Of a stretch of 64,000 nt of DNA, positions 1,053-17,932 are shown piece after piece; within the stretch, counting starts at the first letter, position 1, and every line of letters starts with the position of its first letter. A program made the position numbers and the translations under genes. Under the pieces are notes generated by a model. That model made no database searches, was not told the origin of the DNA, and was given only the letters and a program-made list of their open reading frames with translations. The DNA comes from Escherichia coli (GTDB taxonomy: Bacteria > Pseudomonadota > Gammaproteobacteria > Enterobacterales > Enterobacteriaceae). The stretch is taken from NCBI RefSeq assembly GCF_003018235.1, contig NZ_CP027437.1, one strand, 5' to 3'.

Positions 1053-1139
1053 GCGAAGGTGGCGGAATTGGTAGACGCGCTAGCTTCAGGTGTTAGTGTC
1101 CTTACGGACGTGGGGGTTCAAGTCCCCCCCCTCGCACCA
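1053..1139 (+). tRNA. leuV: tRNA-Leu (anticodon CAG), 87 nt, ends CCA
   Basis: Cloverleaf-compatible sequence gcgaaggtggcggaattggtagacgcg...ggttcaagtccccccctcgcacca with long variable arm; anticodon loop cuuCAGgu. Confidence 0.95.
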
Positions 1140-1167: not shown

Positions 1168-1254
1168 GCGAAGGTGGCGGAATTGGTAGACGCGCTAGCT
1201 TCAGGTGTTAGTGTCCTTACGGACGTGGGGGTTCAAGTCCCCCCCCTCGCACCA
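1168..1254 (+). tRNA. leuP: tRNA-Leu (CAG), identical copy 2
   Basis: Exact 87-nt repeat of first tRNA. Confidence 0.95.
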
Positions 1255-1288: not shown

Positions 1289-1375
1289 GCGAAGGTGGCG
1301 GAATTGGTAGACGCGCTAGCTTCAGGTGTTAGTGTCCTTACGGACGTGGGGGTTCAAGTCCCCCCCCTCGCACCA
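1289..1375 (+). tRNA. leuQ: tRNA-Leu (CAG), identical copy 3
   Basis: Exact 87-nt repeat of first tRNA. Confidence 0.95.
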
Positions 1376-1413
1376 ATTATCTTTACTTCCTTTCTTGTTT
1401 CTTCCCTGATTTT

Positions 1414-1650
1414 TCATCCCTGATTCAAATTCATTATCATCAGCATGATGCCAGCAATAAGCGCCAGGCACGATGGCAGCAAAACGTAATGCCGCAACTG
1501 TTTGTGATACAGCATCACCGGCGTCAATATTAATCCCATCAGAATGACAATCCGCCACTGATCCGGCGATAAATCCGCATACATCAGCCCTGCAATCAGC
1601 AATCCCGGCAGCAACACTCCCCAGCCACTGCCCAGCGTACGTTGCAACAT
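1414..1650 (-). CDS. yjjZ: Small hydrophobic inner-membrane protein (78 aa), Fur-box-adjacent
   Basis: Internal Met of ORF 1414..1761 (MLQRTLGSGWGVLLPGLLIAG...); two predicted TM helices; 38-bp spacing from leuQ. Confidence 0.6.
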   Translation of the reverse strand: MLQRTLGSGWGVLLPGLLIAGLMYADLSPDQWRIVILMGLILTPVMLYHKQLRHYVLLPSCLALIAGIMLMIMNLNQG

Positions 1651-1664
1651 GGTTTCATCTCTTT

Positions 1665-1712
1665 CATTGATAATGATAACTAATATCATATGATAATTTT
1701 TATCATTTGCAA
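1665..1712. promoter_or_regulatory. Fur box-like iron-regulatory repeats in yjjZ/fhuF divergent control region
   Basis: tgataatgataactaatatcatatgataatttttatcatt contains overlapping GATAAT/ATCATT hexamers typical of Fur sites. Confidence 0.5.
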
Positions 1713-1751
1713 GCCAGAGAAATCCCTTGCTATCGGGTAAACCTATCGCTA

Positions 1752-1776
1752 GGATTAGCAATCATTATCATTTAGA
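1752..1776. promoter_or_regulatory. Second Fur box-like site immediately upstream of fhuF
   Basis: gattagcaatcattatcattt matches Fur consensus GATAATGATAATCATTATC in 3' half. Confidence 0.45.
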
Positions 1777-1790
1777 TTACTATCCCGATT

Positions 1791-2579
1791 ATGGCCTATC
1801 GTTCCGCACCGCTCTATGAAGATGTTATCTGGCGAACGCATCTCCAGCCGCAGGATGCTGGGCTTGCACAAGCCATACGGGCGACGATCGCCGAACATCG
1901 TGAACATTTGCTCGAGTTTATCCGCCTGGATGAACCCGCTCCGCTTAACGCCATGACGCTGGCGCAATGGTCATCAACGAATGCGCTAAGTTCTCTACTG
2001 GCGGTCTATTCCGATCATATCTATCGCAACCAACCAACGATGATCCGCGAGAACAAACCGCTGATCTCACTATGGGCGCAATGGTATATCGGCCTGATGG
2101 TGCCACCATTAATGTTGGCGCTGCTGACGCAGGAAAAAGCATTAGATGTGTCGCCGGAACATTTCCACGTTGAGTTTCACGAAACCGGACGCGCCGCCTG
2201 TTTCTGGGTCGATGTGTGTGAAGATAAAAACGCAACACTACATTCGCCGCAGCAGCGAATGGAAACGTTAATCAGTCAGGCGCTGGTTCCGGTAGTGCAG
2301 GCATTAGAAGCAACGGGAGAGATCAACGGCAAACTTATCTGGAGCAATACCGGTTATTTGATCAACTGGTATCTGACTGAGATGAAACAGCTGCTTGGCG
2401 AGGCGACGGTTGAATCGCTGCGCCATGCCCTCTTTTTTGAGAAAATGCTCACGAACGGTGAAGATAATCCACTCTGGCGTACCGTGGTACTGCGCGACGG
2501 CCTGCTGGTGCGCCGCACTTGCTGCCAGCGTTATCGCTTACCGGATGTGCAGCAATGTGGCGATTGTACGCTGAAATGA
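1791..2579 (+). CDS. fhuF: Ferric-siderophore reductase FhuF (C-terminal 2Fe-2S C-C-x10-C-x2-C motif)
   Basis: 262-aa ORF ending RRTCCQRYRLPDVQQCGDCTLK; recognised sequence. Confidence 0.9.
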   Translation: MAYRSAPLYEDVIWRTHLQPQDAGLAQAIRATIAEHREHLLEFIRLDEPAPLNAMTLAQWSSTNALSSLLAVYSDHIYRNQPTMIRENKPLISLWAQWYIGLMVPPLMLALLTQEKALDVSPEHFHVEFHETGRAACFWVDVCEDKNATLHSPQQRMETLISQALVPVVQALEATGEINGKLIWSNTGYLINWYLTEMKQLLGEATVESLRHALFFEKMLTNGEDNPLWRTVVLRDGLLVRRTCCQRYRLPDVQQCGDCTLK

Positions 2580-4532: not shown

Positions 4533-4595
4533 ATGATACAAATGGATTCTCATTATCTGAACAATACGCAGCACGTCTATGACAAAGGGCGAGTT

Positions 4596-16371: not shown

Positions 16372-16642
16372 TATCTTTCCCCTGAAAAATTCAAAATCAT
16401 TAATATAGAAACAGTTAATCATCACGTTACCGGGACTGCGCTGCCCCTGCAATTCTTCATTTTATCAAAATTGAGCATGTTTTGTTAACTTGCTGATATT
16501 TAATATTTTATTATCTTTAAATGTAAATGGTTTGTTAATTAGATCACATTTACATCACTTACTTTTGCCAAACTACGCAATCGGGAATAAAAGTAATCAT
16601 TAACATATTAATGATTAAGATGATCGAATCCGAGGAGTGGTA

Positions 16643-17932
16643 ATGAAAGGCACTATCTTCGCCGTAGCGTTGAACCATCGCAGCCAGCTTGATGCATGGC
16701 AGGAAGCGTTCCAGCAATCCCCCTACAAAACCCCGCCTAAAACTGCGGTCTGGTTTATTAAACCACGCAATACGGTGATTGGTTGCGGTGAACGGATTCC
16801 CTTTCCACAGGGTGAAAAGGTACTGAGCGGTGCGACTGTTGCGTTGATGGTGGGGAAAACGGCGACGAAAGTACGTGAAGAAGATGCGGCAGAGTACATC
16901 GCCGGATATGCGCTGGCTAACGACGTCAGCCTGCCGGAAGAGAGCTTTTACCGCCCGGCAATCAAAGCAAAATGTCGTGATGGATTCTGCCCCATTGGCG
17001 AAACCGTGGCTCTCAGCAATGTCGATAATCTGACTATCTATACCGAGATCAACGGGCGTCCTGCCGATCACTGGAATACCGCCGATTTACAACGTAACGC
17101 CGCACAGTTGCTGAGCGCCCTGAGCGAATTTGCCACGCTGAATCCAGGCGATGCCATTCTGCTCGGCACGCCACAGGCGCGCGTGGAAATACAGCCAGGC
17201 GATCGCGTGCGTGTTCTCGCAGAAGGTTTCCCGCCACTGGAAAATCCGGTAGTGGACGAACGTGAAGTGACCACGCGCAAGAGCTTCCCAACGCAGCCAC
17301 ACCCGCACGGCACGCTGTTTGCCCTCGGCCTGAACTACGCCGACCACGCCAGCGAACTGGAATTTAAGCCACCGGAAGAACCGCTGGTGTTCCTGAAAGC
17401 GCCGAATACCCTCACTGGCGATAACCAGACCTCCGTGCGCCCGAACAATATTGAATACATGCACTACGAAGCGGAGCTGGTGGTAGTTATTGGCAAGCAG
17501 GCGCGTAACGTCAGCGAAGCCGATGCCATGGATTATGTCGCGGGCTACACCGTGTGTAACGACTACGCCATTCGCGACTATCTGGAAAACTACTACCGCC
17601 CTAACCTGCGGGTAAAAAGCCGCGACGGACTGACGCCGATGCTTTCAACCATCGTGCCGAAAGAGGCGATCCCGGACCCGCATAATCTGACCCTTCGCAC
17701 CTTCGTCAACGGCGAGTTACGCCAGCAAGGCACCACCGCCGATCTGATCTTCAGCGTGCCCTTCCTGATCGCCTACTTAAGCGAATTTATGACCCTGAAT
17801 CCGGGCGACATGATCGCCACCGGCACACCAAAAGGCTTATCTGACGTGGTGCCTGGCGATGAAGTAGTGGTGGAAGTAGAAGGCGTGGGCCGCCTGGTGA
17901 ACCGAATTGTGAGTGAGGAAACAGCGAAATGA
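16643..17932 (+). CDS. hpaG: Bifunctional 5-oxopent-3-ene-1,2,5-tricarboxylate decarboxylase / 2-hydroxyhepta-2,4-diene-1,7-dioate isomerase (two FAH-like domains)
   Basis: 429-aa ORF after GAGGAG RBS; duplicated fumarylacetoacetate-hydrolase-like halves. Confidence 0.9.
   Translation: MKGTIFAVALNHRSQLDAWQEAFQQSPYKTPPKTAVWFIKPRNTVIGCGERIPFPQGEKVLSGATVALMVGKTATKVREEDAAEYIAGYALANDVSLPEESFYRPAIKAKCRDGFCPIGETVALSNVDNLTIYTEINGRPADHWNTADLQRNAAQLLSALSEFATLNPGDAILLGTPQARVEIQPGDRVRVLAEGFPPLENPVVDEREVTTRKSFPTQPHPHGTLFALGLNYADHASELEFKPPEEPLVFLKAPNTLTGDNQTSVRPNNIEYMHYEAELVVVIGKQARNVSEADAMDYVAGYTVCNDYAIRDYLENYYRPNLRVKSRDGLTPMLSTIVPKEAIPDPHNLTLRTFVNGELRQQGTTADLIFSVPFLIAYLSEFMTLNPGDMIATGTPKGLSDVVPGDEVVVEVEGVGRLVNRIVSEETAK

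Follow-up and report, generated by a model that had tools for sequence, protein, structure and literature searches.

Two 78-codon reading frames between leuV and fhuF of Escherichia coli: the Fur-controlled gene yjjZ and, very probably, its shadow

Genes and reading frames at the leuV-fhuF locus

The window, by which we mean the whole 64-kb stretch of Escherichia coli DNA analysed, begins with the gene order rsmC, leuQ-leuP-leuV, yjjZ, fhuF, bglJ. Its source is a non-K-12 strain, and over the yjjZ stretch it was 100% identical to strain 300709. The three tRNA-Leu(CAG) copies were identical to each other by both ARAGORN and Rfam. The tRNA gene that adjoins the open frames, named leuQ in an earlier sequence-only reading of this DNA, is leuV in NC_000913.3, and leuQ is the copy at the far end of the operon. 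The genes and frames treated here are:

1053-1139, plus strand: tRNA-Leu(CAG) gene leuQ, the promoter-proximal copy and first of the operon (ARAGORN, Rfam, NC_000913.3)
1168-1254, plus strand: tRNA-Leu(CAG) gene leuP (ARAGORN, Rfam, NC_000913.3)
1289..1375, plus strand: tRNA-Leu(CAG) gene leuV, final gene of the leuQPV operon (ARAGORN, Rfam, NC_000913.3 naming)
1322..1558, minus strand: shadow ORF, very probably not a gene, running from the +2 frame of yjjZ through the spacer into leuV antisense (without a family match; dN/dS 2.0-2.3)
1414..1650, minus strand: yjjZ coding sequence, very probably the real gene, 78 aa, a DUF1435 small inner-membrane protein (Pfam PF07256, RefSeq, conservation, dN/dS)
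1651..1761, minus strand: in-frame upstream extension of yjjZ used in some database entries, with ATG 1689 (91 aa) and TTG 1761 (115 aa)
1791..2579, plus strand: fhuF, ferric-siderophore reductase, divergent from yjjZ (NCBIfam NF007932, 478 bits; RefSeq)

The ORF list held two minus-strand ORFs of 237 nt, 1322..1558 and 1414..1650, each of 78 codons plus a stop, just as the sequence-only reading had described them. Both lie on the same strand with a 2-nt offset, 1322..1558 being the +2 frame of 1414..1650. The former starts with GTG and the latter with ATG, and ATG 1650 is internal to a maximal ORF (1414..1761, minus strand, 115 aa) that starts with TTG. The product of 1414..1650 had a GRAVY of +0.93, and that of 1322..1558 was hydrophilic, as previously noted, with a GRAVY of -0.78. 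The last 54 nt of 1322..1558 (1322-1375) are antisense to leuV, which converges with yjjZ across a 38-nt gap.

This E. coli spacer was pyrimidine-rich on the tRNA strand. At the orthologous loci most genera had 21-140 nt between yjjZ and tRNA-Leu(CAG), and some Erwinia had as many as ~540 nt. On the other side of the tRNA operon, the spacer between rsmC and the first tRNA was 200 nt in strain 300709 vs 268 nt in the K-12 derivative Stbl4, or ~70 bp shorter. An Rfam scan of 800-2800 at E <= 1 returned only the three tRNAs and a sub-threshold match to naRNA4 at 873-912 on the minus strand, just downstream of rsmC (23.6 bits vs a gathering score of 59.5, E 0.18), which is probably a REP-type palindrome.

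The membrane-protein frame 1414..1650

Residues 1-75 of the 1414..1650 product matched positions 1-75 of the 75-position Pfam model DUF1435 (PF07256) with 125.2 bits and an E-value of 1e-36, against a gathering cut-off of 22.9 bits. The product is hydrophobic, falls in the ~75-80 aa range of the family, and carries its SGWG and ML(Y/F)HxxLRH(Y/F)xLLPS motifs. Residues W10, M46, L47, L52, R53, L57, L58, P59, and S60 were near-invariant among 54 sequences. A word search recovered 622 homologues, and 56 clusters at 50% identity were found among 1.84 billion proteins. In these sequence collections DUF1435 is a small family restricted to Enterobacterales.

We scanned one genome per species with a nine-sequence alignment as the query and obtained 80 loci, in Escherichia, Citrobacter, Salmonella, Kosakonia, Enterobacter, Buttiauxella, Cedecea, Atlantibacter, Siccibacter, Franconibacter, Shimwellia, Erwinia, Pantoea, and others. 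The YjjZ frame was intact at 76-81 aa in 79/79 testable loci from >20 enterobacterial genera, and 76 of the 79 had an ATG at the homologous position. In three Buttiauxella loci (L053, L056, and L065) the conserved start position held ATA or ATT immediately after an ATG codon, and the start appears to be shifted by one codon there. Where the flanking sequence was long enough, yjjZ was almost always followed by a tRNA-Leu(CAG) gene on the other strand.

Codon substitutions separated the two frames over the stretch common to both. By the Nei-Gojobori method (NG86), dN/dS in the yjjZ frame came to 0.22 for Escherichia alone and to 0.13-0.14 for 25 sequences from Escherichia, Citrobacter, and Salmonella, and the corresponding values in the 1322..1558 frame were 2.03 and 2.34. 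The yjjZ frame is thus conserved and, on these ratios, evidently under purifying selection, which the substitution pattern does not indicate for 1322..1558 in its own frame. GC3 was 0.64 for yjjZ vs 0.41 for 1322..1558. Window and K-12 YjjZ shared 95% identity with four conservative substitutions. Five nucleotide differences between the window and K-12 fell in the overlap of the frames: in the yjjZ frame two were synonymous and three conservative (I/V, V/M, V/I), whereas in the 1322..1558 frame all five were replacements, G/D and R/H among them. The sequence-only reading had preferred the membrane frame on biological plausibility and had proposed a comparison of conservation and codon substitution in both frames. 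That comparison, together with the family match and the intact loci, supports its preference.

The same reading had called the annotation of the locus ambiguous, which we did not find. In NC_000913.3, yjjZ (b4567, 'DUF1435 domain-containing protein YjjZ') occupies 4,605,804-4,606,040, exactly window positions 1650-1414, and PGAP annotates the equivalent of 1414..1650 both in strain 300709, which is 100% identical, and in a derivative of K-12. In a spread sample of 5,424 E. coli genomes, yjjZ, tRNA-Leu, and fhuF were the only features in 19/19 chromosomal rows. The reference annotation of this locus is unambiguous and already gives the membrane frame. The window gene has the same position between leuV and fhuF, the same length, and the same Fur-controlled promoter as K-12 yjjZ, and nothing substantial set it apart from that gene or from DUF1435.

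Three helices are predicted for YjjZ, not the two assigned from the letters alone, although the hydrophobic character noted at the same time was correct. Hydropathy gave three peaks, an AlphaFold2 model built on the 54-sequence alignment placed helices at 10-24, 29-48, and 57-77 (pLDDT 67.5, medium confidence), and Lago et al. described three TM segments (PMC5437024). Conservation in the protein was highest in the basic loop and where helix 3 begins, ML(Y/F)H(K/R)xLRH(Y/F)xLLPS(C/G). Applied to this loop, the positive-inside rule suggests a topology with the N-terminus in, loop 2 in, and the C-terminus out.

The top Foldseek neighbours of the YjjZ model were three-helix units of SWEET, SemiSWEET, and mitochondrial pyruvate carrier (MPC) proteins, all with E-values >1, among them MPC2 (TM 0.61, E 1.3); the query model was of medium confidence. 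A sequence-profile search of the PDB with YjjZ found zero relatives, and the MtN3_slv, PQ-loop, and MPC families were absent from a Pfam scan at E <= 1. YjjZ therefore only resembles these triple-helix bundles, with no sequence or profile similarity to them found in either search. An AlphaFold prediction of a tandem YjjZ-linker-YjjZ construct (pLDDT 40.5, pTM 0.27) was too low in confidence to inform on a dimer. DUF1435 proteins might be unrecognised protomers of the SemiSWEET/MPC-like triple-helix-bundle type that oligomerise into a small-solute transporter induced by iron starvation, a reading hinted at by how the structural matches to this medium-confidence model rank, and one that we consider unlikely. 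The most likely role of YjjZ would be that of a small inner-membrane accessory or transport-related protein during iron starvation.

Published experiments on the protein itself are few. Direct detection of E. coli YjjZ was not found in the literature, and neither LC-MS nor a 3xFLAG fusion revealed the Salmonella protein (PMC5437024). In an epithelial-cell assay, Salmonella lacking yjjZ did not figure among the mutants whose cytosolic proportion was reduced. Effects of YjjZ knock-down and knock-out on solvent tolerance were inconsistent (PMC6131188), and yjjZ was absent from the supplements of acid-stress Ribo-seq work. Within the core Fur regulon, YjjZ is an uncharacterised protein that is conserved throughout Enterobacterales, and its function is a fair question.

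The tRNA-overlapping frame 1322..1558

The product of 1322..1558 had no match in Pfam or NCBIfam. Its GTG is made up of the G of codon 31 and the TG of the Trp32 codon of yjjZ (caG TGg, encoding the conserved Gln31-Trp32), and no Shine-Dalgarno sequence precedes it as read from the sequence. Among the 80 orthologous sequences the corresponding ORF ranged from 0 to 137 aa (median 60), with starts at yjjZ nt 3, 27, 93, 180, or 276 and stops +5 to +362 from the yjjZ stop, and in many genera it was absent or <30 aa. The spacer between yjjZ and the tRNA varied among loci by non-multiples of 3, so a tRNA-encoded tail cannot stay in frame.

The openness of this frame can be accounted for by the composition of YjjZ. 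A stop in the +2 frame requires a codon ending in T followed by one starting with AA, AG, or GA, that is, a codon for Lys, Asn, Asp, or Glu or an AGN codon of Ser or Arg, and such residues are rare in a hydrophobic protein. Because of that rarity, the +2 frame of yjjZ stays open. YjjZ has only eight junctions that permit a +2-frame stop. When its synonymous codons were resampled, the mean number of stops was 1.2 in the +2 frame vs 10.3 in the +1 frame, and nt 93-237 of yjjZ were stop-free in the +2 frame with a probability of 0.42. By chance, no stop interrupts the next 92 nt of the frame either, across the spacer and leuV antisense; this tail was open in 20% of shuffles. The combined chance of full openness of 1322..1558 is ~0.08 (0.42 x 0.20), which is unremarkable. 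The window contained 144 ORFs of >=78 aa, 92 of them shadow ORFs inside longer ones. The identical 78-codon length of the two frames is a coincidence, and versions of the alternative frame in other E. coli entries were 73, 78, 79, 84, 87, 91, and 100 aa long with differing ends. Across DUF1435 orthologues the +2 frame had 0-6 stops per 237-nt span vs 2-13 in the +1 frame; this depletion is a composition effect of hydrophobic proteins.

We weighed whether 1322..1558 could be a genuine second coding gene, either dual-coding with yjjZ or itself the true b4567. It is an open frame of 78 codons with a GTG start, some submitters have annotated it, including in a K-12 record under the name b4567, and 48 of the 80 orthologous sequences have a +2-frame ORF of >=60 codons. 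These points are opposed by its dN/dS above 2 and want of family matches in the databases above, by start and stop positions that wander among loci where the frame survives at all, by the out-of-phase spacer, by a GTG lacking a Shine-Dalgarno sequence and a GC3 of only 0.41, and by the fact that YjjZ amino-acid composition alone predicts its openness. We consider a second coding gene here extremely unlikely. Like other shadow ORFs, which are known to give rise to spurious gene calls, 1322..1558 overlaps its host out of frame, has a dN/dS >1, lacks a homologous family, and owes its openness to host composition. It differs from the usual ones in running 92 nt past the host gene into tRNA antisense and in having exactly the length of the host gene, which is why it resembled an alternative annotation. 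We conclude with high confidence that 1414..1650 on the minus strand is the known Fur-controlled gene yjjZ (b4567), encoding a DUF1435 protein with three predicted membrane helices, and that 1322..1558 is a shadow frame and not a gene.

The suspicion that some database annotations use the tRNA-overlapping frame, and wrongly, proved justified. An exact-sequence look-up found this frame deposited as a 58-member cluster, with entries such as CQR83741.1 ('hypothetical protein b4567 [Escherichia coli K-12]'), VZZ91238.1, SOQ99845.1, and SHD60712.1, and the frame failed every coding test applied here. The YjjZ cluster had 1,302 members, with the exact 78-aa sequence on at least 1,000 contigs. The alternative-frame entries are best regarded as a small minority of misannotations, and deposits such as the four named should be treated as spurious. 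A known gene accompanied by an ordinary shadow ORF is already known biology, so the finding matters mainly for database hygiene and does not advance the function of YjjZ. Small hydrophobic genes systematically yield long +2-frame shadow ORFs, and gene callers and readers should expect them.

Promoter, Fur operator and start codon of yjjZ

The control region of yjjZ lies between its ATG and fhuF. Published K-12 coordinates were transferred to the window, which is valid for this region since there were zero indels between 1376 and 1793. The elements are:

1659..1663, minus strand: Shine-Dalgarno-like AAGAG, 8 nt before ATG 1650 (sequence position; GAGAG block conserved in 18 genera)
1662..1714, no strand assigned: high-affinity Fur operator, footprint 'fhuF1', over the yjjZ promoter and transcription start (PMC2189734, mapped)
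1677, minus strand: yjjZ transcription start, K-12 position 4,605,777 (PMC10301672, mapped to the window)
1685..1712, minus strand: yjjZ sigma-70 promoter, -35 TTGCAA at 1712-1707, 16-nt spacer, -10 TATGAT at 1690-1685 (sequence, conservation, PMC10301672)
1744..1797, no strand assigned: low-affinity Fur footprint 'fhuF2', spanning the promoter and start of fhuF (PMC2189734, mapped)

The two Fur footprints were obtained with DNase I by Chen et al. in 2007, fhuF1 with high affinity and fhuF2 weaker (PMC2189734). The best two matches to the 19-bp Fur consensus in the 64-kb window were at 1669-1687 (16/19) and 1692-1710 (15/19), both within the fhuF1 footprint and just upstream of ATG 1650; the Fur-box-like repeats pointed out beside this frame in the sequence-only reading are therefore part of a published operator. 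Matches in the fhuF2 region, at 1751-1775, were weaker (12/19). A Fur 19-mer stood upstream of the yjjZ ATG in every orthologous locus, with 14-18/19 matching positions (>=15 in all but one), and at -36 to -43 from the ATG in most enterobacterial genera. The block of -35, Fur box, -10, Shine-Dalgarno, and ATG was conserved in an alignment of 18 genera, and the sequence further upstream was not.

The sigma-70 promoter lies beneath the high-affinity Fur operator, so yjjZ would be silent in cells with ample iron and expressed when iron is scarce or fur is mutated. Use of the transcription start was observed both in vitro and in cells with mutated fur, and the promoter was silent in the wild type (PMC10301672). 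The core Fur regulons defined for nine E. coli strains and for CFT073 include yjjZ (PMC10164565, PMC7157518), with ChIP-exo data in the former (PMC10164565). [quoted passage not shown] In stationary-phase Salmonella, sigma-S lifts the Fur repression of yjjZ. The yjjZ promoter is like those of the core Fur genes fepA, entC, and fhuA in having overlapping Fur 19-mers over the -35/-10 spacer, the -10, and the transcription start, and in being silent in the wild type yet active both in vitro and once fur is mutated. Unlike these genes, yjjZ encodes a tiny membrane protein that is not a recognised uptake or biosynthesis component, and its Escherichia operator shares a 140-bp region with fhuF.

The distance between yjjZ and fhuF was 141 bp in Escherichia and ~1.4 kb in most other genera. 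In Salmonella arizonae a gene for a 354-aa membrane GGDEF protein lies between the two (L062:1686-2750, minus strand), and a spacing of ~1.42 kb implies the same in Citrobacter, Kosakonia, Enterobacter, Buttiauxella, and others. Escherichia is without the intervening GGDEF gene, and its yjjZ and fhuF promoters consequently lie in a common 140-bp region. What all genera had conserved was the yjjZ promoter with its Fur box, and for this reason the high-affinity fhuF1 site of E. coli looks, from the sequence comparison, to have been ancestrally the yjjZ operator.

Disagreement over the start codon is a commoner database inconsistency than use of the wrong frame. YjjZ has been deposited with lengths of 78, 91 (from ATG 1689), 98, 100, 115 (from TTG 1761), and 133 aa. 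As a rival reading we considered a genuine YjjZ with a longer N-terminus, initiated at ATG 1689 (91 aa) or at TTG 1761 (115 aa). The frame is indeed open back to 1761, at least 240 contigs carry the 91-aa form, forms of 98, 100, and 133 aa have been deposited too, and many genera likewise have an in-frame ATG 13 codons upstream. Yet transcription begins at 1677, downstream of both ATG 1689 and TTG 1761 (PMC10301672), and ATG 1689 falls within an invariant CATATGAT block that comprises the -10 hexamer and Fur box. That block was invariant at all three codon positions, the pattern of a DNA site and not of coding sequence. In ~30/80 loci an in-frame stop occurred at most 13 codons upstream, and in Buttiauxella, Dryocola, Cedecea, and LSJC7 1-nt indels located after the Shine-Dalgarno sequence and before the ATG put the upstream sequence out of frame. 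ATG 1650 is where the Pfam model begins, and it follows the Shine-Dalgarno sequence by 8 nt. The published transcription start and the comparative data favour the 78-aa YjjZ. The extension 1651..1761 is probably not translated, the 91, 98, 100, 115, and 133 aa forms probably reflect wrong starts, and we regard a longer native protein as very unlikely. The locus might instead act as non-coding RNA, either a Fur-regulated sRNA or an antisense transcript against leuQPV. A terminator scan and RNA folding found no intrinsic terminator on either strand of the leuV-yjjZ junction, which makes read-through antisense to the tRNA conceivable, and the Salmonella protein went undetected by MS and FLAG tagging, as described above. 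Such a role is at odds with the strong codon-level purifying selection, the yjjZ ORF that is intact in every genus, and the conserved Shine-Dalgarno sequence and ATG, as well as with expression of the Salmonella lacZ fusion, which is translational. Rfam found no families besides the tRNAs, and folding energies were no different from those of shuffled sequence, the stability of the junction being ordinary (z = 0.15 and -0.34 for the two strands). A non-coding function is highly improbable, and the 78-aa reading of yjjZ is the one we retain.

Elsewhere in the window, three AT-rich 19-mers, each matching the Fur consensus at 14/19 positions, were found at 16586-16657, just upstream of an ORF beginning MKGTIFAVALNH, which we take to resemble hpaG. 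This region was not found in strain 300709 where collinearity with the yjjZ region would place it. Isolated 14/19 Fur matches also occurred at 4539, 15918, 26952, and 28783.
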